DNA of 63,998 nucleotides, the filler included, from Ionaspis alba (Eukaryota): the NCBI GenBank assembly GCA_964255285.1. It is 6 parts of 6 records of this genome, joined end to end, with 100 filler letters (N's around TTAATTAATTAA, not from the genome) between each part and the next. Parts side by side here need not be neighbours in the genome. Positions count along the whole stretch, not along the records: positions 1 to 11,034 come from CAXUUL010000576.1; 5 more parts are not named here. The stretch is one strand, 5' to 3'. Under the pieces are notes generated by a model. It saw only the letters and a program-made list of their open reading frames with translations, was not told the DNA's origin and searched no databases. Of the stretch, positions 1 to 11,034 are shown one piece after another. Numbering within the stretch: position 1 is the stretch's first letter; every line of letters starts with the position of its first letter. The position numbers and the translations under genes are program-made.

Positions 1-237
1 CTTTGCTCTGTTATCTCTACCAGCAGGCGCGCGTGCGGACAAGTAGAAATTATAGATTCAAGACTAGATAGGAAGGCGTTCATGAGATCGCATACTGTTC
101 CTCGCAAGAGACACTCCAAAACTCGTCCTTGTAAGACTTCTCTCATTTGAGGAATCAACGAGCTATAACCGGAGGGGTATCAAACATAATTCCATCGACG
201 CTAAATCAGCTTACTCACATCGCAGTCCTCTGATACT

Positions 238-2484
238 TCATTTGACCTTGGACATGACGGTTTCCGGTCCTCGCTCTACATACACCTCTGCTGCCTTGCC
301 CTTGACAGAACTTAACATCCCTCTATCATAATCGTCTCTTGAGCGAAGCACACTCTCCACCCAGCTTAGCTGCACATCCCAATATTCTTTCTTGAGAGAC
401 TCGTACACTGCTGGTACACCTGACTTATCAGCTTCTAAGAGACGCACGAGGTAGTCCACGACTCTCCACTTCTGCTTGATCAAAGCAAAGTCCGGGAACT
501 TCTTGAAGAACTCAAAAGCGGTAATGACATCGTCCTTGAACTTGTCAGTGAAGGGTTCCGAGCGGCGGAACTTCGCGCCTTTGTTGCGAACTGATAGCAG
601 GTAACGGACGAGTAGGGTGTCGGAGAGCTCTTCCACAAAGATATCGAGCATGCTGTGGTGCAGGACCTCGGAGTAGTCGCTGATGTAGTCATCGAAGGTA
701 GACGTTATACGCTTCATGCCAAATTCGGTATACCATTTGGCGGTGAAGAACTCGGTGATTGTGGAGCGAAAATCGATAGTGAAGATCAATGAGACGAATG
801 ACGAAATGCAGTGGGTGCCGAGATCCACGTAGCCATCTCGGATTATATCCAGCTCAGTATCGGCATTCATCATGTACTTGGGAGGTACCAGCGGCTCAAA
901 ATCCCGCTTGAATCGAGTTAGATAGCCGAACTGCCCAGACTCCTCGTTATCATCGATGCACGAGATCTGGTCGTTGGCAATAGCGACGAGCCAATCTTGC
1001 AAGACTTGAAGGCCATCTTGATCTGCTGAAGCACTCTTGTACTTCGCACACTCGTCGTCAACCAGTCTCTGCCAGTTTGCCTGCCATCTCTTCAAGGCAC
1101 GGAACATCTCGTCTAGAACACCCTCCACGACATCTGCACGATTAGAATTGCCAGCCACGAGAGTTTGCTCTCTCAACATTCGCCACATATCTGGCAACCT
1201 TTTGGTGCGAAAGTAGCCTTGTGAGTCATTGTCAAGACTTTCAGGCTCGCGAGCAAGGAATGACTTCTTGTCTGTGGTGAACATGCGGCCCATCCATTCG
1301 TCAACGGAGTTGACGATCAGCTGTCTCCAATCGCGAACAAGCTCGGCCTCTCTATCGTCGAGTAGCTGTGGCTGTAAGTCTGCTGGGCTCCAATCGAGCT
1401 TGGCCATTTTGGCATAATATTTCTCGCTCCAATGGATAATGCTTAATATGTGGGCTGGAGCAGACTTCTCATCATCGACTAGCTTGATGAGCCAATCATG
1501 CATAAGCTTGTGGTATATAGTGGTGTACGTCTTGAAGATTTTCCACTTCTTCGGCATTAAGCCAACCATGCCTAGCTTCACGGTGTTTAGGTCGTTGAAG
1601 TACCATTTCAGACTCTTTTCAAGCCTATCAGGATCTTCGAGAAAGCTCTGTTCAGAGCTATCGAATTGGGCTTGGGCGTAGTACTCGATAGCTTTCAAGA
1701 ACTTCTCCTTGTAACCTCGCTGTTGTTTGGGTCCCGCCTTGATTGATTTGAATCGCGAGGCTAGCTCCTTGTACTCCTTGTGCGCGTCTAGCATAGCTTT
1801 GACCTTCAAATCACTCTTCTCCTCCTCTTCAATAACCAGGGCTAACCGCACGACCATGCTTTTGTTGTCAGACTGAACCAAGGGAATTAGATTGATGCAA
1901 GCTGAGCCAACGTGCTCGTCGAATATGTCCACAACCTCGTCCAGCTTGACAAAATAATCTTGTAAAGTACCTTCCAATGAGGCATCGGAAGCCTTTTTGA
2001 TCTGGTCCATGGCGTCGTCCCGGATGTCCCTGAGTTGTGTAAGGCCGTGGTGGACATTCAGTAAATTGGGTTGATTCTCTAGATCCCGCTCATCATCCAG
2101 TAGTAGCAGCTCCAGGTCCTTCAGCCTCTCATTGAAGGTGTCGATATTGTTTTTCATAGTCTCGACCTGCAAGAAATTCCTATGTATTTGTGATACGACA
2201 TTGATATTGGGGAAGTCCCGGATCATATTCTGCGACTCAGCGCATAACTTGTCGATCTTCATCATCTCCTCCTTGATCTGGTTGACAGTGCGTTGACTCT
2301 CGGTGATAGATCCCATTCCCGATTGTGTAACTTCCAATTGCTCTTTCAACCCAACTTTCAGCTGTCCGTCGACGGCAGCTTTCTTGCGGGTGAATTCCGC
2401 CTTCAAGGCAGGAATTTTGTCAAGATCCTCGGGATGTCGCAGAAGCTCTGCGAGCTTGACGGTAAAAGAGTCGACGTCTGCCAT
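238..2484 (-). CDS. SEC6: Exocyst complex component Sec6
   Basis: 748-aa intronless helical ORF. N-terminus LAELLRHPEDLDKIPALKAEFTRKKAAVDGQL and C-terminus YVERGPETVMSKVK are typical of Pezizomycotina Sec6. Confidence 0.95.
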   Translation of the reverse strand: MADVDSFTVKLAELLRHPEDLDKIPALKAEFTRKKAAVDGQLKVGLKEQLEVTQSGMGSITESQRTVNQIKEEMMKIDKLCAESQNMIRDFPNINVVSQIHRNFLQVETMKNNIDTFNERLKDLELLLLDDERDLENQPNLLNVHHGLTQLRDIRDDAMDQIKKASDASLEGTLQDYFVKLDEVVDIFDEHVGSACINLIPLVQSDNKSMVVRLALVIEEEEKSDLKVKAMLDAHKEYKELASRFKSIKAGPKQQRGYKEKFLKAIEYYAQAQFDSSEQSFLEDPDRLEKSLKWYFNDLNTVKLGMVGLMPKKWKIFKTYTTIYHKLMHDWLIKLVDDEKSAPAHILSIIHWSEKYYAKMAKLDWSPADLQPQLLDDREAELVRDWRQLIVNSVDEWMGRMFTTDKKSFLAREPESLDNDSQGYFRTKRLPDMWRMLREQTLVAGNSNRADVVEGVLDEMFRALKRWQANWQRLVDDECAKYKSASADQDGLQVLQDWLVAIANDQISCIDDNEESGQFGYLTRFKRDFEPLVPPKYMMNADTELDIIRDGYVDLGTHCISSFVSLIFTIDFRSTITEFFTAKWYTEFGMKRITSTFDDYISDYSEVLHHSMLDIFVEELSDTLLVRYLLSVRNKGAKFRRSEPFTDKFKDDVITAFEFFKKFPDFALIKQKWRVVDYLVRLLEADKSGVPAVYESLKKEYWDVQLSWVESVLRSRDDYDRGMLSSVKGKAAEVYVERGPETVMSKVK

Positions 2485-2808
2485 TGTGGCAGGTAGAAGC
2501 TGTGGCTACCGAGGCATCTTACATCTGTCCGCACGAGAGCCGTAAAGTTGGGAAATGAGACCTTGATGTTGCCCATAAGCTTCGAGGCATGACAGGGTTA
2601 CGTGCACAGACCAACAACTTCGAAAAGCACAACCAACCTCCAACTTCAGAAGTGCCAACGTCAATCATTGGACGACTATGAACGAAACAGAACTCGAAAC
2701 TAATTTGAGCCCTTGACAAACAGTAGGCTATGCTTCTGCAACTTCTCGCGCATCTCGCTGATCAATGGATAGTCGACCCCAGGCACGTCGTGGCCTTCTC
2801 TGCTCGAT

Positions 2809-3069
2809 ATGCCCTTCTTCAGAATCACTCAAATCCGATCTTCGATTGGTCTACCAAGGAAGACACAAGGAGTATTGCGGGCACTTGGCCTGAAGAAGCG
2901 TATGGCTACGGTTTTCCACCCTGTCAACTCGGATGTCGCAGGTCAGATCATGAAGGTCAAGGAGTTGGTTGCGGTGTCAGAGGTGGAGCAAGCGTTATCA
3001 CCACAGGAGGTGAAGGAGAGGAGGAAGCCGGATCCAGGATATTATGTCGAGACATCTGTGCCGCGATGA
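2809..3069 (+). CDS. MRPL33: Mitochondrial large ribosomal subunit protein uL30m (L33)
   Basis: 86 aa, FRITQIRSSIGLP...LRALGLKKR...VAGQIMKVKELV matches the L30 family. Divergent from SEC6 across about 325 bp. Confidence 0.93.
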   Translation: MPFFRITQIRSSIGLPRKTQGVLRALGLKKRMATVFHPVNSDVAGQIMKVKELVAVSEVEQALSPQEVKERRKPDPGYYVETSVPR

Positions 3070-3632
3070 TAAAGATTTGTCTGTACGAGTCTGAAGAATG
3101 TGTGGAGGACTGAGCGGACACTGCAGCCAAAGGTCATCGTTACTGCACCTTGCGTGCAACATCTAGTCGGAGTAGAGTTTCGGACAAAGATTATGACCTG
3201 GCGACCTTCCTGCTTGTACACATCTTGCAGGACTGCCCGGGAGTATGGACGGAATGAAGATTGAAAGGCGTGATATGTGATGGGAGATATATGAGGGTTT
3301 CGAACTCGAGCTTTCGAATGCTATGAGACAGCAGTGGCTTATCAAAGCAGATCTAGGTCCTGTCAAAGCATTTTGCGATATTTAGCCAGAAGTGGTTTGA
3401 GTGAGCCCCTCATTCCACCATCACAAGCAATGTTCAAATTACCTAGATAAGTGAGGTGCAAGGAAAACGGGAGGAGGATGCCGCATAGATACTGTTCTCA
3501 AAGCATGTAATTACAATAGTCGAGTTGGAATGATTCTAGAATCTGGAAGGCTTCTGAGTACTGGACAAGCCAGGCCACGGATGCCTCCCCTGCCTCAAAT
3601 AAAGAGGACTTACGGAGAGGGAGCGCCAGGAA

Positions 3633-5615
3633 TTACTCCCCGGCAAGCTCACGGTAATCAACTCTGTTCGTACGCCTCGAGGACTTTCGAGTTCCTTGGG
3701 CGATCGGTTCAGAGCGTGATACCTCGGGCTCTTCCTCGTCATCGACCTCAAACCTCGGTTTGGCAGCCTTTGCAGGCGCTTTACCAGGCTTCGAATTCGA
3801 AGACTTGGAGGGCCCGGCAGAGGATTGTGCTTTCACTCGAGCTAACCGAGTGGAACGACCACCGGGTTTAGCATCTAGAACCACATGATAAACCCCATCT
3901 TGTTGCTTGAAAGGTGCCGAACGCTCTGCCTTGTTTCTCTGACCCTGTTTCCATTTGGTATGGTGATGTTGGCATGGTGCGCACCTTAGAACACCCTCGA
4001 TTAAAGAAGAGACGAACTTCGACGATTTCACAGTGCCGCAGTTCGAGCAAGGATGATGAACCGAGGTGTCCCAGAAGGTTCCTGGTCGATCAAACTTGTA
4101 TTTTACTGCAAAGGTGACACATTTGTGGCAAAGATACCGCGAAAGAAGATGCGCTGCGGAGGCGTCTCGATTCTTCGGGTCTCTAAAGCACACATCTATA
4201 TCACCGCTCTTACAGTTCTGACAGGAATTGCCATCGAGGTTGAAATTCCCCTCGTGGTCGTTCCCTATGTAACCATGAACATAACAAGCCCAGCATAAAT
4301 CGTTGGTTTGCGGTCTCCCACTCTCCAGCGAATACCATTTGCGTGCATTGTTAGCATTTTCGCCACAAGCAATGCGGTCCTCAAAAGTCACCGAACAAAT
4401 AACACAAAACCGATCTCCGGGCTTTCGCCCCATTCGATTTTGGTTTATTGATATAGCACCATTGAGACCGCAATTCTCGGTCCAAGGGACTTTGGGGAGA
4501 CCGTGCGGAGTCGTTTTTCGAACGAGCTCAAAGCATGAAACAGGACACCATGTATGAGGTGTGGTGTTCATTCTAAGAGTTCGTAAGAAAATCATCATCA
4601 CTGTCTCAAAACTGATGACGTAGAACGGACTCGTTCCCATAGGAAACTTTGCTATGACGCGAAGATTCATCTTTGAATCTTCTTTCAGGGCATTGCGGAG
4701 ATGGGCATGTTTGAGCTCTTCTTTACGGCCATTGCCTGTTTGAGCCAGGACGTATTGATGCAAACGTGCCCATAATCCAGCCTTGCGCCCGTTTCGTACC
4801 AGCATAGTTGCACTTCCCACATAGGGGCGGCAACCCTGGGGACTGGTGACAAAGTCAGCATAAACACCAGGATTTGATACACCTCTCCATGCAGAAGGGA
4901 GAGAACAAAGTGCCCGGACATCTAGCTGATCTTGTCCAAGTATATGCTTGACTGAGTCTGGGACCGCGTCAAGATACACCTGGACAAGATTGTCCAGTGT
5001 CGAACGAATACAGGTAGACCAGAATACCCTTGTAAAGGGCTGATCAGCCCACCTGACACCCTCGCTCTTCACAGAGATAGAAAGACAAGCGTCCCGTATC
5101 TCTTTGGTAATGGAGCGAACGTGCTCAGAAAAACGCTGGATATTCACCGGTGAAAGGCTCCCCACGTCCACGTCCGGAGCGTCTCCACCAGCAACATCCG
5201 AGTCGTCCTCATCGACGTCGTCCAATGCTGCAGCCAAGGCTGCCTCCTCTTCATCGACATAGTCGGCGTCGAATTCAAGGTCCTGCTCCCGAACCTCGTC
5301 GTCCTCGTCGTCCTCGGTACGGCTCTCCACAGCCTCGAACTCGCTTTCAGGATCAGCCACCGCCTCAGGAGAGGCAATGACGTTCCTGGCAGCAGCATTC
5401 TCGGCCAGGGGTGCACGCACCTTGGACTTCCGAGGAGTCGAAGGAACGGAGTCGGCACCTTGCCTTCGATGTTTGTTCCCCAGAGGGGAACGGGAAGGAG
5501 GAGCGCTCCCCAATTGCTTCGCACGCTTTGGAGGAGCCAAAACTATGGTATCGCTACCATAGCCATGGTCTTCCGCCACGTCGAAAGCGCGTTTGGTTGG
5601 TGTATTGGATGGCAT
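3633..5615 (-). CDS. Uncharacterised protein: acidic/disordered N-terminus, GIY-YIG-like endonuclease domain, three C4 zinc fingers (last one GATA-like)
   Basis: 660-aa intronless ORF. GVY-x12-YVG at 4868-4815, then ARLHQY (Arg), FETVMM (Glu) and GLN (Asn). CxxC pairs: CVIC..CWAC, CQNC..CHKC, CSNC-x18-CAPC. Probable 5'UTR intron from GTGAGG at ~5756 to CTAAC...AG at ~5643/5635. Confidence 0.75.
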   Translation of the reverse strand: MPSNTPTKRAFDVAEDHGYGSDTIVLAPPKRAKQLGSAPPSRSPLGNKHRRQGADSVPSTPRKSKVRAPLAENAAARNVIASPEAVADPESEFEAVESRTEDDEDDEVREQDLEFDADYVDEEEAALAAALDDVDEDDSDVAGGDAPDVDVGSLSPVNIQRFSEHVRSITKEIRDACLSISVKSEGVRWADQPFTRVFWSTCIRSTLDNLVQVYLDAVPDSVKHILGQDQLDVRALCSLPSAWRGVSNPGVYADFVTSPQGCRPYVGSATMLVRNGRKAGLWARLHQYVLAQTGNGRKEELKHAHLRNALKEDSKMNLRVIAKFPMGTSPFYVISFETVMMIFLRTLRMNTTPHTWCPVSCFELVRKTTPHGLPKVPWTENCGLNGAISINQNRMGRKPGDRFCVICSVTFEDRIACGENANNARKWYSLESGRPQTNDLCWACYVHGYIGNDHEGNFNLDGNSCQNCKSGDIDVCFRDPKNRDASAAHLLSRYLCHKCVTFAVKYKFDRPGTFWDTSVHHPCSNCGTVKSSKFVSSLIEGVLRCAPCQHHHTKWKQGQRNKAERSAPFKQQDGVYHVVLDAKPGGRSTRLARVKAQSSAGPSKSSNSKPGKAPAKAAKPRFEVDDEEEPEVSRSEPIAQGTRKSSRRTNRVDYRELAGE

Positions 5616-6850
5616 TGTGTAGAATTATAGAGTTCTATATACCTGTTAGCACTCGCACATTCGCTCAGGAAGGGCATATACTCATTCAATGGCATTCAAT
5701 TACAGAGGAGAAGGAAGAGGTCAACCGTCTGTAGAATTCATATAGTATACCCTCACCTCGCGCCCACCCACCCCTCCTCTCCTTCCCAATCCGCGCCCTC
5801 TCCCCAATCTTTGGGGCATCTCACCCAGGAGCCTAGCTCCGAGAGTTTGCCTGAACTCAAAAGCTCTCCCCCTTCAGCATCCAATCTCCCCCAGACTGTC
5901 CATGACGCATCGAGCATCTCAAGATGGACCAATAGACCTGCAGGGTTTTCACCTCGTGCCATCAGAATTTACCCCTGGCAATCGGGTCCAGCTTCCGTCG
6001 TGACTCGGAAGTCACCGAAGCCGTCAGGCCATCTCAGGCCAGCACAGTACATCGGAGAGCTGTCAAATGTGGCTCGTGCACGACGATGAAACATCGTATT
6101 GGACTCGATTGCTCGATCGGGCCAATCTGGCGATAGCCGTTTTCTCCGTAGCCCTTAGCGTGGTGAACCCCCTGTAGCGATCCCTACACATTTGGACAGA
6201 GATCATCGGCGTTCCCACTAAGACTATACAATGCAGACTTACCTTTGACGATTGCGCTGCTCTTGCTCGTGTGTTCCAGGTAGGAACAGGCCCTCCCCTC
6301 GCCTTCCAAAGGCTTCTATGCCTATGCATCGCTCCCCAATCTCATCCAAACAGACATCGTGAAGACCTCCAGCTGCTAGAGCCCAATCATATATAGATCA
6401 CGATAGTCAGCAGCTTCCAATGATGATTGACGCTAGAAAAATGCACTAATGGGCACTTGTGCTGTCAGAAATGGGGCTGTTAGGGTACCTGGAAGCTAAA
6501 TCGACAGGGGTCCGAAGAGAATCATGAGCATCGATATCCACTGTAGGTCCAGCAGTTCAGGCCTCGGAACAACGTCATGTAGACTGTAGTGAATCACGCG
6601 CCCCACGTAGATAAGTATTCCCACATTCCCCCTTCGTAGTCCCTCTCCCTTCCTCACCTTTACAACTCACCAAGAAGTCGAGAGTAAGTTGCCCCTTTCC
6701 CTCTTGTCCTGGTGAAGCCTTCCCTATATCAGAAGCGAGTTGCAATGAGTTGCAGCTCACTGCAATTGTTCATTTGAGCTCTGGTCTCCCTTGTGGCGCT
6801 GTCGTTGTCCGGTAGTAGCATGACTGACATATGTATAGAGCAATCATACC

Positions 6851-7782
6851 ATGGCTCCGACGATCAACATCCAGAACAACTACGCTCCACTGTCAGGCAG
6901 TGGTGGTTATAGACGTGTAAGTGCTGACCCCTCTCTCTCTTTCTCTCTCTCTCCCTCTCTCCCTCTCTCCCTCTCTCCCTCTCTCCCTCTCTTTGGAGGC
7001 CTCCGTGACTTGATGCAATGATTATAGAAGCATGCTAACATATGTGTATAGAGACCTCCCCCGAAGAAAAAGCCTTCTGTCGAAGGCTCTCGAGTCACTA
7101 AGGAGAAGAAGGAGAAGAAGAAAGAGAAGAAGGAAGGGGAGAAAAAGAAAGAGGAGAAGAAGAATGAGAAGGAGAAGAAAGGAGAAGAGAGAGGAGAGGG
7201 GGCCAACCTCCAACAGGACGAAACTGTGAGTATCTCTCTACATTTTGAATCCAGTGTTGGCATCAATTAATATGTATATAGAGAAAAGCTGCATGCAATC
7301 TAGTGAAAGAAGACCTGACTATGGAACCGAAATATGTCAGGCTCGTGAGAGGAGATTGGGGAGATGGTGGTGGAGAGGTGTGGGATGATGCGGTAAATGC
7401 ATGTGTTTTCCAAGTGTTCTACTAGTTGCTGATCACGTGATTCAAGCTGTGTGTTGGCTATCGTGCGTTCTCTTTAGCGTATAGTTCCGCTAAATCTAGT
7501 GGAGATTCGCACGAGAAAGCTCGAGAAGCTGGTCACGAGGCGGTACAGGCTTTGAGAAGTGGGGAGGGCGCCACGATGAGCGATGAGGAGGCTACGGGGG
7601 GCAAAAATGGGAAAAGAAGTCGAAATCGGAAGGCTGCTTGGGAGGCCGGCTACGAGAAGGGAAAGGAGGAGGCCGCTGAGTTGAAAAGGACGATTGAGCG
7701 GTTGGAGAATGATCTCCAGAGAGTGAAAGCTCAAAATGCCGATCTTGTTCGTCGGCTCACGCCAACTCCAATTATACATTAA
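6851..7782 (+). CDS. Orphan 228-aa Lys/Glu-rich protein with C-terminal coiled coil (4 exons)
   Basis: Exons 6851-6916, 7052-7225, 7282-7392 and 7447-7782 are joined by GT-AG introns (GTAAGT, GTGAGT, GTAAAT; CTAAC/TTAAT/CTGAT branch-like sites). All are phase 0 and give one open frame: MAPTINIQNN...KEKKEKKKEKK...AWEAGYEKGKEEAAELKRTIERLENDLQRVKAQNADL...IIH*. Confidence 0.7.
6928..6993 (+). repeat. CT-rich simple repeat (CTCTCTCC-like units) in intron 1 of the orphan gene
   Basis: Pure pyrimidine tract ccctctctctctttctctctctctccctctctccctctctcc... Confidence 0.85.
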
Positions 7783-8163
7783 TCTAGATAGCTTGAATAT
7801 GATTTTAAATTTTTATTTATAATATTTCGAATGCAGGCGAGTCATCAACAGGAAACAAAGACACTGAAGTGACAAATACGGTATGTAGGCTCCAGTTCTA
7901 CAATTGCTAACCCAACTGAAGCTGGACTGCGGAACGACAGCGCTAGTACTCCTTCCTGCCAAGACTTTTTGCTCCGATCCCTTCGAATGTGCCCTAGAAA
8001 CCTTTCGATCAGCCATTCAAATTTCCTCCTTCTCCTCTGCTGCAACGTCCTTAAACGCAAAGGAAAGCTCCTGACCCGAGCCCAATCAATCATAGCGGCA
8101 AGCTTGGCGCCTTGCGCCATAAGCTCATATGCGGACAAGCAACACTTCTCTTTCATAAACGAC

Positions 8164-8883
8164 ATGCCTCTCAGTCTACCAAACACCCTCCTTTCCCTCC
8201 GCCCACAACCCTCATTATCATCACTAAGTCAACTCCGGACCTTCACCACCACCTCCGCTCTCCCACACCGGCACTCCACCAAATCCCTCATCCACAAGCA
8301 CCGCAATATTCCACCCTACCCTCACGGGCCTTCGCAATGGTACAAACAATCAAACTTCGGTCTCTACGGCTCCACTCGTCTGCAATTCGGCAACACCGTT
8401 TCAGAGCGGACCGAGATTAAAAACCGTCGTAAATGGCACCCCAATATCCGACACCAGCGACTGTGGAGCGAGGCTCTGGGGAGGTTTGTACGAGTCAAGG
8501 TACTGGCGAGGGTAATGAGGACGATTGATAAGGTGGGAGGGTTGGATGAGTACTTGCTTGGAGAGAAGACGGGGAGGGTGAAGGAGCTAGGAATGGGTGG
8601 ATGGGCGCTGAGGTGGCGGGTTATGAGGACGGAGAAGGTGAGGGAGAGATTTGCGAGGCAGAGGGCAGAGATGGGGTTAGTGGCGCAAGGCGGAGAGGGG
8701 GAGGAGGTTGTAGGGATTGATGGGAGTGTGGCCGCTGAGCAGGAGTTGAGGGAGCAGGAGGTCAGGTTTGATCGGGCGTTGGATAAGGATGATAGGGCGG
8801 CAGAAAGGGGAAAGGATGGGGGATTAGAGCTGGGGGGTTTGGAGGAAGAGGGAACGAGGCCCACGACGAAGGAAGCTTGGTGA
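8164..8883 (+). CDS. MRPL24: Mitochondrial large ribosomal subunit protein bL28m (L24)
   Basis: YKQSNFGLYG...FGNTVSE...RRKWHPNI...LWSEALGR...RTIDKVGGLDEYLL matches the L28 family. ATG at 8164 is followed by a mitochondrial-presequence-like segment. Confidence 0.9.
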   Translation: MPLSLPNTLLSLRPQPSLSSLSQLRTFTTTSALPHRHSTKSLIHKHRNIPPYPHGPSQWYKQSNFGLYGSTRLQFGNTVSERTEIKNRRKWHPNIRHQRLWSEALGRFVRVKVLARVMRTIDKVGGLDEYLLGEKTGRVKELGMGGWALRWRVMRTEKVRERFARQRAEMGLVAQGGEGEEVVGIDGSVAAEQELREQEVRFDRALDKDDRAAERGKDGGLELGGLEEEGTRPTTKEAW

Positions 8884-9036
8884 GGATAGAAGCTCTGTCG
8901 TTTCAAGGCCAAGATCATTGTGAAATACGCATATACGGGAGTCAATAACACTTTGTGGATTAGTCTAGCATTCGCTTTCACGACCTGGAAATCCATCTAG
9001 ATAATACACTGAGGTCATGGCCGGATTCAGATTTTA

Positions 9037-11034
9037 TCAAGCCAGTCTAACACCGGCCTGGCGATTCTTCTTCGCTGTCTGACCCAGCGCGTTGTTCAAA
9101 CCCGTAGCCTGACTGGTATCCAGGGAGCTCTGCGCCATCTGCTTCTTCTCATTTTCGATCTTCTTCAAATGCTTCTCAGTCTTCTGCTTTCCACTTCCCT
9201 TGCCGTGGAACAGGTGGCTGAGATGCTTGAATGCCTCTTTCTGATTCATTGATCTCCCAAATTCATCCACGTACTTCAGCTGCACATCTGGCTTGTACTC
9301 CTTGCTGAAGATCTCCGCCATTTGTCTTGACTCTTGTTGATCTCGTTGCTTGTTTTCCCATCGAGCATACTCCTCACGCTCACGAGCAGACATGCGGTCG
9401 AGCTTACCTGATGCTCGATCACGCTCACGCTGCAGACGGGCTTTGTGTTCTGCTGCGGCTTCTCGTTTCTGCTTCTCCGCAAGAAATTTCTGGCGTTCGC
9501 GGTGAAGGGCATTGATGTCGCCGTTGTTGGAATTCTCAAGTAGACCACGTTGTGTCAACAATGAGAGAGTCGAACCAATGCCTTGGGTAAGAGTGGCTTC
9601 TTCTTCTAGTCCAGTAACTGGAATATCTGTTCGGACAGGGGTCGAAGTCTCCCTCTTAATCCTGGCCTCAATCTCATCCTCCGCTTCAACATCGTCGTAA
9701 GGGCGTTCCATGTCCACATCTCCGTTCTCATCAGCCCCCGAATGCGACAGGTTCTCCACCTTGACAGTACCATCCGTCTTCGACGAGGGTGCCCTGGCCT
9801 TTTCGGGAACAGTAGGTCTCTGTAGATTTGCAACAAATTCTGAAGTCTCGTCTATAACTAGACCACCTTCGTCCGCGGCACGGTCGTCATTGGGTCCTGG
9901 CGTAGCTGATGCCTCTTCACGTAATTGCCGAGCAATATCCTCTGGCTTCATCTTCCTTCTTTTCTTGAGAGCTTCACGCCTTGATTTTGCTAAGGACGCT
10001 TGTAAATCATCATCATCGACAAAGGACATATTGTCTGTCCGTGCACGTGGCGGATAGGCTGGCGTTGATTTCTCGCCCGACTCCACATCCATCATGTCTC
10101 CATTTGCTTCAGCTCCATTCATCGACTCGACCGTGGGAAATATATCATCTTCGTCAGCAGCCTTCTGCCGAGTCGACTTTGCCTTTTTCTTCTTCGGTTT
10201 CTTGATCTTAAAGTCAGACACCTCAACGTAATCGGAGGTTGGCAAATCCTTCAAGATATCCAGACTAATAGCTTGAGGTTTAGATCTCTGTCCACTGTCC
10301 CGCATCTTTGCCTCCGTCTCCTCGGCCGTCGACCCTTGCGCGTCCAAAGTGAATCGCTTCCTCTTCTTCCCATCTATAGCCTCATCATAATGCTTAAGAA
10401 GTACCTTCTCCTCACTGTCATCAATGTCATTGGGATTATAGACAGGCTTCCTCTTCTTCAGCTCCAATTTCTCTCCAAGTCTTTCTCGTTCCCTCAATTC
10501 CAAGTTCTCCAACTCGTCTCCCTCCTCCTCGTTCTCCTCAATCGTCGTATCCTTCAATACAAGCACTTGCTCTCCTTCGCCCTCGAAATCCCCTATTTCA
10601 TGGCCGACCTTGACACCTTTGAGGTCCTCTCCAGTGTACTGTATCCCTTCCTCTCGCTCTCTCAACTCCCTCTCTATTCTTGCCGCTTTCTCCCTTTCCT
10701 TCTCCAATTTCTTCTGTCTCTTCTTGGTCTGCAGTAGCCAGCTTTTGGTGTCCATTTCTGTCACGTCATCTGCCTCCCCAAGTCCCTTCCCCTCCAACTT
10801 CGCGTATTTGCGTGCCGCATCATGCGCTTTCTTCACAGCTTCTTTCTTGGCCTCACGTCGGGCTTTGGCAGCGGCTTCATCCTGGAGTTTCTTCCAATTG
10901 TCATACCCCTCCGCCTGCCTAGACTCTAAAGTACTTCCTTGGTCTTCCTCGTCAGAGGAACTCTCGGAGTCATCTGAGGGTTTGAAGGTGGGCCCAGTGC
11001 CAGGTACTGGTAATGGTTTGAGACCGAGTGAGAC
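9037..11034 (-). CDS. SNU66: U4/U6.U5 tri-snRNP protein Snu66/SART-1 (5' end lost in gap)
   Basis: SLGLKPLPVPG next to the gap; GVKVGH; YKPDVQLKYVDEFGRSMNQKEAFKHLSHLFHGKGSGKQKTEK is the SART-1 C-terminal signature. Confidence 0.93.
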   Translation of the reverse strand, partial: VSLGLKPLPVPGTGPTFKPSDDSESSSDEEDQGSTLESRQAEGYDNWKKLQDEAAAKARREAKKEAVKKAHDAARKYAKLEGKGLGEADDVTEMDTKSWLLQTKKRQKKLEKEREKAARIERELREREEGIQYTGEDLKGVKVGHEIGDFEGEGEQVLVLKDTTIEENEEEGDELENLELRERERLGEKLELKKRKPVYNPNDIDDSEEKVLLKHYDEAIDGKKRKRFTLDAQGSTAEETEAKMRDSGQRSKPQAISLDILKDLPTSDYVEVSDFKIKKPKKKKAKSTRQKAADEDDIFPTVESMNGAEANGDMMDVESGEKSTPAYPPRARTDNMSFVDDDDLQASLAKSRREALKKRRKMKPEDIARQLREEASATPGPNDDRAADEGGLVIDETSEFVANLQRPTVPEKARAPSSKTDGTVKVENLSHSGADENGDVDMERPYDDVEAEDEIEARIKRETSTPVRTDIPVTGLEEEATLTQGIGSTLSLLTQRGLLENSNNGDINALHRERQKFLAEKQKREAAAEHKARLQRERDRASGKLDRMSAREREEYARWENKQRDQQESRQMAEIFSKEYKPDVQLKYVDEFGRSMNQKEAFKHLSHLFHGKGSGKQKTEKHLKKIENEKKQMAQSSLDTSQATGLNNALGQTAKKNRQAGVRLA

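Follow-up and report, generated by a model that had tools for sequence, protein, structure and literature searches.

What kind of DNA separates two mitoribosomal protein genes in the fungus Ionaspis alba? The window analysed here, a stretch of 63,998 nucleotides from assembly GCA_964255285.1, carries an island of about 4.5 kb (3312..7834) in which two genes stand head to head between the conserved pairs SEC6-MRPL33 and MRPL24-SNU66. A 10-bp direct repeat, TTTCGAATGC, lies just outside the 3′ ends of both genes (3312-3321 and 7825-7834) and is the sole 10-mer common to the two flanks. From these features the island had been predicted to be a self-contained inserted module, either a mobile element bounded by a target-site duplication or a spore-killer-like toxin/antidote pair. 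Our analysis points to a different answer. By analogy with known homing systems, gene 1 (3633..5615, minus strand; a 660-codon frame encoding 660 residues in a single coding exon) is probably an intact nuclear gene from a family of homing-type endonucleases that is evolving fast in ascomycetes. For the island as a whole we tentatively favour, at somewhat less than an even chance, a reading in which gene 1 is a free-standing homing-type nuclease and gene 2 (6851..7782, plus strand; 228 residues) is a resident neighbour. The locus is confined to positions 1-11034 of the window, which make up the whole of one contig (G000:C576); positions 11035-63998 are other contigs joined via runs of N. Searches of the genome covered the assembly of 18.3 Mb in 1282 contigs.

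Gene 1 was predicted to combine a nuclease with a zinc finger, and both parts were recovered in a more specific form. The protein consists of a basic start, an acidic tract at residues 88-150 (49% Asp/Glu), a helical extension leading into a GIY-YIG catalytic core, three C4 fingers and a basic tail. The core, at residues ~248-388 (4452..4874, minus strand), was placed by an AlphaFold2 model together with residue conservation. The model of residues 150-401 has a predicted local distance difference test score (pLDDT) of 93 and a predicted template modelling score (pTM) of 0.92. Compared with known structures (VIA), it matches I-TevI (1ln0) with Z 6.8 and a root-mean-square deviation of 2.4 over 92/92 aligned residues, followed by T4 EndoII (Z 5.5) and UvrC (Z 5.1); just three of 48,161 chains reach a Z of at least 5, each of them a GIY-YIG domain. 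The catalytic set is present in full (GVY252, Y265, YVG267, R284, H305, E337 and N385), with G267, R284 and E337 invariant in 51/51 and 72/72 aligned family rows, and Y252, Y265, H305 and N385 at least 90% conserved across the same two alignments. On the predicted fold and the residues together, gene 1 is a member of the GIY-YIG superfamily. A Pfam search left it unnamed, the PF01541 model not being reached, and the same model matches weakly in 5/51 family members (best E=0.0012). The best viral rows from Foldseek are named intron-associated or homing GIY-YIG endonucleases, all at E>0.03.

The six CxxC motifs downstream of the core make up three CxxC...CxxC GATA-like fingers at residues 404-444, 465-499 and 523-548 (3972..4406, minus strand). 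When the family profile is compared with PDB sequences, the best matches are GATA fingers (GATA-3, E=2.6e-07), and the fingers of GATA-1 and AreA reach Z 5.0. Upstream of the coding exon, a motif scan predicts a branch point and 3′ splice site (5635..5650, minus strand) for an intron in the 5′ untranslated region (UTR), which would end 19 nt ahead of the ATG. No further copy of gene 1 was found in the genome with its own sequence, P0003, P0023 or PF01541 as queries. A weak match on contig C183 was considered and rejected as a family member, and the genome's sole canonical PF01541 match (G000:C763:1159-1368, L095), which we take to be SLX1, is separate from gene 1. Atlas matches stayed under 0.9 for gene 1 and gene 2 alike.

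The family to which gene 1 belongs is sizeable. A full HMMER scan with residues 150-580 as the query returned 116 representatives at E<=1e-3 including gene 1 itself, hence 115 relatives, with 38 representatives at E<=1e-10. Most relatives are only 25-35% identical, and the G/R/E residues are nonetheless invariant. Organism names were available for 14/30 of the family clusters examined, all of them filamentous ascomycetes: Agyrium, Thelotrema, Pleopsidium, Caloplaca (two), Rusavskia, Flavoplaca and Physcia, together with Aspergillus terreus (two), Exophiala, Neophaeococcomyces, Fusarium and Leptodontidium. The closest named relatives are lichen-forming fungi, and the named members span four classes. 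No relatives were found among metagenome and viral contigs. The titles and opening lines of abstracts that were searched held no description of a GIY-YIG/GATA-finger fungal family, and two family locus tags gave 0 matches; the nuclease family of gene 1 appears undescribed.

Within this family, intact and broken alleles are found side by side. Clusters that are at least 97% identical mix the two, and four of the clusters include alleles that are split or truncated. Among 15 of the 16 P0020 entries, 5 are full length, 4 end at residue 408 with the remainder as a separate call, and 2 shift frame past residue 492. The P0024 cluster has 4/10 entries at full length and 6/10 as split pieces, and P0047 holds forms of 641 and 576 residues that are one repeat apart, plus 3 broken entries. 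Near-identical alleles in P0047 and P0159-P0171 differ by one finger repeat of ~65 residues, which marks the finger array as variable. Identical breaks come back on 3-11 contigs, which makes errors a less likely cause. A patchy distribution with intact and degenerate alleles, a criterion for homing endonucleases, is what the gene-1 family displays, though errors or paralogy may contribute to the pattern. A quick family tree (84 of 113 scored proteins, with support from the Shimodaira-Hasegawa-like approximate likelihood ratio test, SH-aLRT, only) puts the Teloschistaceae homologues in three separate clades (support 100, 99 and 95) and groups A. terreus with Leptodontidium (98), apart from Exophiala. 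The tree thus appears to cut across taxonomy, for which either horizontal movement or old paralogy can account.

Comparison of the locus with other fungi bears on how the two genes came to lie here. On the left, SEC6 (238..2484, minus strand; Pfam Sec6, E=4.6e-166) is divergent from an intact MRPL33, which encodes mitoribosomal uL30m (2809..3069, plus strand; Pfam Ribosomal_L30) and has a single match in its own genome. On the right are MRPL24, encoding mitoribosomal bL28m (8164..8883, plus strand, start at ~8164; Pfam Ribosomal_L28), and SNU66/SART-1 (9037..10755, minus strand, the 3′ part of the frame; Pfam SART-1, E=5e-178). The identity of these flanking genes was thus as predicted. A scan for MRPL33 kept 80 loci; the 43 at >=70% identity were used and the 37 at <=50% were left out. 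The 43 represent 27 distinct loci, and by hand count 18 of these have at least 1.5 kb of downstream sequence. The closest SEC6 relatives (69-75% identity) are on metagenome contigs. The head-to-head SEC6-MRPL33 pair is kept in 27/43 fungal loci and the gene after MRPL33 varies. The MRPL33 loci of relatives contain MRPL24, SNU66, gene 1 or gene 2 in 0/43 cases, and MRPL24 is next after MRPL33 in 0/18 distinct loci. What follows in 9/18, among them each of the 7 loci with SEC6 at >=69% identity, is a gene that we take from its sequence to be DPL1; 8 of these copies keep the same strand and 1 is inverted. In the Ionaspis alba genome DPL1 is on contig C277. Because relatives lack the MRPL33-MRPL24 adjacency and DPL1 is on C277, the island is best described as a gene-order breakpoint, and the idea of a self-contained inserted module found no support.

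Gene 2 proved to have a history in the same neighbourhood. Its 228-residue frame is open across canonical phase-0 GT-AG introns (predicted exons 6851-6916, 7052-7225, 7282-7392 and 7447-7782), and the protein is K/E-rich with a coiled-coil-like C-terminus; coiled-coil matches in Pfam were below threshold only. Donor and branch/acceptor motifs predict a further intron in its 5′ UTR (6684..6838, plus strand). It had been described as a charged coiled-coil orphan. The charge is confirmed, and no relative was found outside the genome in a weak search (exon 4 only, longer proteins only), but related decayed pieces at 66-74% identity occur at three other places within it: C277:7360-7563, C277:18709-18848 (at the contig end) and C213:21119-21626. 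The C213 piece carries stops and deletions and is depleted in CpA (0.67). The position of intron 2 matches in two of the paralogous pieces. Over 56 codons, pN is 0.16 and pS 0.59, and with a dN/dS of ~0.15 gene 2 can be regarded as having been under purifying selection. Intron 1 contains a CT-rich microsatellite (6930-6990); the piece at the end of C277 stops, and the C213 piece starts, at this CT tract, so the two are possibly halves of one gene-2 copy. On C277 there are also genes that we presume to be LYS20 and an MNN10-like gene, and what we take to be a thioredoxin-like gene adjoins the C213 piece. Among the 18 loci of relatives, LYS20 is no more than 10 kb away from MRPL33 in 3, the MNN10-like gene in 1 and the thioredoxin-like gene in 4, the thioredoxin-like matches being just 32-51% identical. 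Since genes of C277 and C213 are found near MRPL33 in relatives, all gene-2 pieces fall within one ancestral neighbourhood.

Some features of the gene-2 introns and of the contigs that carry its pieces were recorded along the way. Intron 2 (7226-7281) is 79% identical (44/56) to that of the C277 paralogue, compared with 41% at synonymous sites, and no shared fold of this intron was predicted over three copies. Four predicted 3′ splice sites in the island, at 5635, 6838, 7051 and 7281, end in TATAG. With a strict motif, TATAG acceptors account for 3/4 hits in the island and 0/56 outside, and with a loose motif for 4/17 and 5/329; the pattern was noticed post hoc, and the gene-2 introns are not independent of one another. 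At the end of G000:C213 (L010:9690-9960), a short stop-bounded coiled-coil-like frame is divergent from the decayed gene-2 copy and has no other match in the genome. On G000:C277, upstream of a gene-2 piece, there is a tRNA-like gene with a GT-AG insert in its D arm (L012:6870-7005), probably Pro-UGG as judged by eye, which ARAGORN and Rfam overlooked; the same locus contains a match to the Rfam small RNA Afu_309 (L012:14-316, 178.7 bits).

The favoured reading joins these observations as follows. The GATA-like fingers of gene 1 would recognise an extended DNA site, beside which the nuclease would cut. On the model of I-TevI-type and WHO systems, an allele without the gene would be cut in a diploid nucleus and its repair would use the carrier as template, so that gene 1 would spread; after fixation the gene would decay and occasionally move to a new site. 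Gene 2 would be a spliced gene resident in this neighbourhood and restricted to the lineage, with several rounds of local duplication and breakage behind it, and not an antidote. A local rearrangement would have parted MRPL33 from DPL1 and brought in MRPL24-SNU66 at the 4.5 kb, and the 10-mer would be a chance match. That the nuclease itself caused the local breaks is a guess. Of the mobile or selfish origin first suggested for the island, one part remains plausible, namely for gene 1, given that its fold is of the homing type, its active site is invariant, and its family is patchy and includes broken alleles; the part that found no support is a two-gene insertion with a target-site duplication.

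Several observations weigh against a homing nuclease. No cleavage target site of gene 1 was identified. Gene 1 is single-copy and gives no direct sign of recent movement, and its GC content and dinucleotides resemble those of host genes, with GC at third codon positions somewhat lower (0.50 vs 0.54-0.64). The structural evidence has its own limits, as the Z of 6.8 is middling on VIA's own scale and Foldseek returned no match at E<=0.001 in PDB or BFVD. Ancient paralogy with loss would fit the family tree equally well, and some of the broken alleles could be assembly or gene-calling errors. No empty-site allele was seen in the 18 distinct loci, all of them distant (SEC6 <=75%) and with other gene orders. 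With relatives as distant as these, an insertion may have followed the rearrangement, and the species itself may carry an empty allele.

The strongest alternative, which we consider doubtful, is that gene 1 serves the host as a nuclease or regulator (in DNA repair, chromatin or genome defence) within a birth-and-death family, and that it and gene 2 came to lie at the breakpoint through ordinary shuffling of the local gene order. A single-copy gene with host-like composition, its own predicted promoter and a 5′ UTR intron is what this view leads one to expect, as is an active site kept across four fungal classes. The weak Atlas look-alikes include plant EFFECTOR OF TRANSCRIPTION-like GIY-YIG proteins (0.78), a lead only, and what comes after MRPL33 differs from relative to relative in any case. 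A host-serving gene fits less well with the rate at which the family diverges, the lichen-fungal relatives being 25-35% identical compared with ~70% for SEC6, with the recurrence of loss-of-function alleles among near-identical copies, or with a tree that cuts across taxonomy.

Two further proposals give gene 2 an active part, and one of them draws on a small remnant that lies beyond the 3′ end of gene 1. At 3420..3447 (minus strand), 25/28 bases are identical to the 3′ UTR of the gene-2 copy on C213. The score of this match was reached by 0/1000 shuffles and 0/1909 real control pieces, and a consensus pattern has two sites only in the genome, the remnant and C213; compared directly with the gene-2 end within the island, the remnant is not significant (122/1000 shuffles). 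One proposal, which we regard as unlikely, is that the GIY-YIG/GATA-finger nuclease is active outside introns and inteins with gene 2 as its target, and that repeated cut-and-repair, with retargeting as fingers were gained and lost, scattered the gene-2 pieces and broke MRPL33 from DPL1, amounting to a WHO-like drive that filamentous ascomycetes would have built independently from a different nuclease. In the other, also quite improbable, gene 2 would serve the nuclease as host or target, either as in WHO elements or with the nuclease borne in an intron; gene 1 would once have lain within a minus-strand copy of gene 2, or immediately upstream of one, with the remnant as the surviving 3′ end of that copy, and repeated cut-and-repair would have scattered the pieces. 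The position of the gene-2-type 3′ remnant, immediately past the 3′ end of gene 1 and on its strand, is in line with this, and WHO elements likewise bear a host-gene 3′ fragment downstream, according to one report (10.1101/2020.01.20.913210). The other gene-2 pieces all being on contigs of the same ancestral neighbourhood, the TATAG acceptors (one of the three strict hits in the island being gene 1's, a post hoc count) and the high identity of intron 2 relative to synonymous sites would also agree. The remnant is only 28 bp long, however, no 5′ part of gene 2 turned up on the minus strand ahead of gene 1, and no nuclease copy or relic is present beside the other gene-2 pieces. Homing elements usually hit conserved essential genes, FBA1 in the case of WHO, whereas gene 2 is an orphan. 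A resident gene 2 beside a free-standing nuclease remains the reading that we prefer.

A toxin/antidote pair, in which the nuclease would kill sibling spores and gene 2 would inhibit it in carriers, is more improbable again, and no positive evidence for it emerged. Gene 2 is intact solely beside the intact nuclease and broken elsewhere, and it has been under purifying selection; the head-to-head layout would permit co-regulation, and a rearranged region would suppress recombination. Whether homologues of the two genes are located together at other places, a check put forward with the original prediction, received a partial answer. Within the genome, gene 2 has diverged at several loci without gene 1, its pieces lying at three places; beyond it, the 116 gene-1 representatives contrast with the lack of any gene-2 relative in the weak search described above. 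The finger array, moreover, would point to a specific site and not to general toxicity.

Least probable of all, to the point that we would set it aside, is a mobile element made up of the two genes, which would have entered between MRPL33 and MRPL24 and left a target-site duplication of 10 bp, for a common 10-mer is present in 18% of 20,000 random same-size segment pairs from the window and the relatives lack the MRPL33-MRPL24 adjacency that it supposes. The repeat is exact and lies outside both 3′ ends, and the gene-2 end in the island aligns with C213 as far as ~7831, near the right copy. That alignment, however, takes in 7/10 bases of the right copy, which therefore overlaps gene-2-family sequence from the 3′ UTR of the C213 paralogue. 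The caution that a match of this kind is plausible by chance was thus well placed, and the left copy (3312..3321, plus strand) is probably such a match. A second full copy, a transposase and a recombinase are all absent, the Pfam search giving no transposase or recombinase domain above cut-off, in agreement with the reported lack of DDE and tyrosine recombinases; no terminal inverted repeat was present among the best 25 of 130 repeat pairs, longest first. A DNA transposon flanked by a target-site duplication was rejected on these grounds.

The remaining features of the island are few. The start codons of the two genes, at 5615 (minus strand) and 6851 (plus strand), confirm the head-to-head layout and leave 1235 bp between them, a divergent region (5616..6850) that would hold the promoters and 5′ UTRs and in which no conserved-gene fragment was detected. 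The 3′ UTR of gene 2 (7783..7834, plus strand) contains an AT-rich stretch together with the right 10-mer copy; the right end had been called very AT-rich, and its GC content is indeed 15% at 7790-7830, but over merely ~40-50 bp. ARAGORN and Rfam gave no match on the island. Its non-coding parts bear no clear signature of repeat-induced point mutation, with TpA/ApT at 0.71-0.81 compared with 0.63 in the window.

Among known systems, gene 1 would work most like a free-standing I-TevI-type homing endonuclease set in a nucleus. I-TevI-type enzymes, known from the td intron of phage T4 and from free-standing phage and organelle members, likewise combine an N-terminal GIY-YIG domain with a modular zinc-containing DNA-binding region, and theirs, like that of gene 1, is a decay-prone family. 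The catalytic residues of I-TevI, given as R27, H40 and E75 in PMC12774661, correspond to the Arg, His and Glu of gene 1 by motif order. Gene 1 differs in being a nuclear chromosomal gene with a predicted spliceosomal 5′ UTR intron and no group I intron, and in having a helical extension of ~100 residues, an acidic tract and insertions in the core. Where I-TevI has a single finger and a helix-turn-helix, gene 1 has GATA-like C4 fingers instead.

WHO elements of Torulaspora and Lachancea resemble gene 1 as free-standing nuclear endonucleases with a zinc finger, located downstream of a conserved gene. Like the gene-1 family they are patchy, with intact genes and pseudogenes (10.1101/2020.01.20.913210; 10.64898/2026.08.13.744650). 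WHO nucleases are LAGLIDADG/intein-like where gene 1 is GIY-YIG, they form gene clusters of a kind that the island lacks, and the gene 3′ fragment downstream of the nuclease has as its counterpart here just 28 bp of gene-2 UTR. A WHO element as such was rejected on account of the GIY-YIG fold, a single-copy MRPL33 and the lack of any credible tblastn match of 16 neighbourhood proteins in the non-coding parts of the island.

The spliceosomal homing introns of mirusviruses ('shintrons') also place a GIY-YIG endonuclease in a nuclear spliceosomal setting (PMC12768974). This identity was rejected for gene 1, which is in no intron of a conserved gene; no host exon was found in the island, and MRPL33, SEC6 and MRPL24 are complete outside it. 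It is possible that gene 1 lies inside an intron of an untranslated or non-coding transcript. Like gene 1, Spok-type spore killers are encoded by fungal genes that evolve fast, occur patchily and join a nuclease to a cysteine-rich region. Spok, in which one gene provides both killing and resistance, also has a kinase domain; gene 1 has no kinase and its nuclease fold is different. SLX1 and other host GIY-YIG repair nucleases are, like gene 1, nuclear proteins with a GIY-YIG domain followed by a zinc-binding module, but gene 1 misses the PF01541 model and comes from a family with far greater divergence and a far patchier distribution.

Eukaryotic nuclear homing endonucleases are known mainly from group I introns in ribosomal DNA, from inteins and from the WHO elements of yeasts. 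If the gene-1 family serves the host, its interest would be more modest, but it would still be a family of fungal nucleases that has not been studied. If the reading that we favour is true, a GIY-YIG family with swappable GATA-like arrays in four ascomycete classes would add another class to the selfish genes of nuclei, and would be a candidate cause of local gene-order shuffling in filamentous ascomycetes. Such a family would, in addition, offer a modular nuclease from nature with a specificity that can be studied, and for this the Ionaspis alba locus supplies an intact, non-intronic member of the family for assay.

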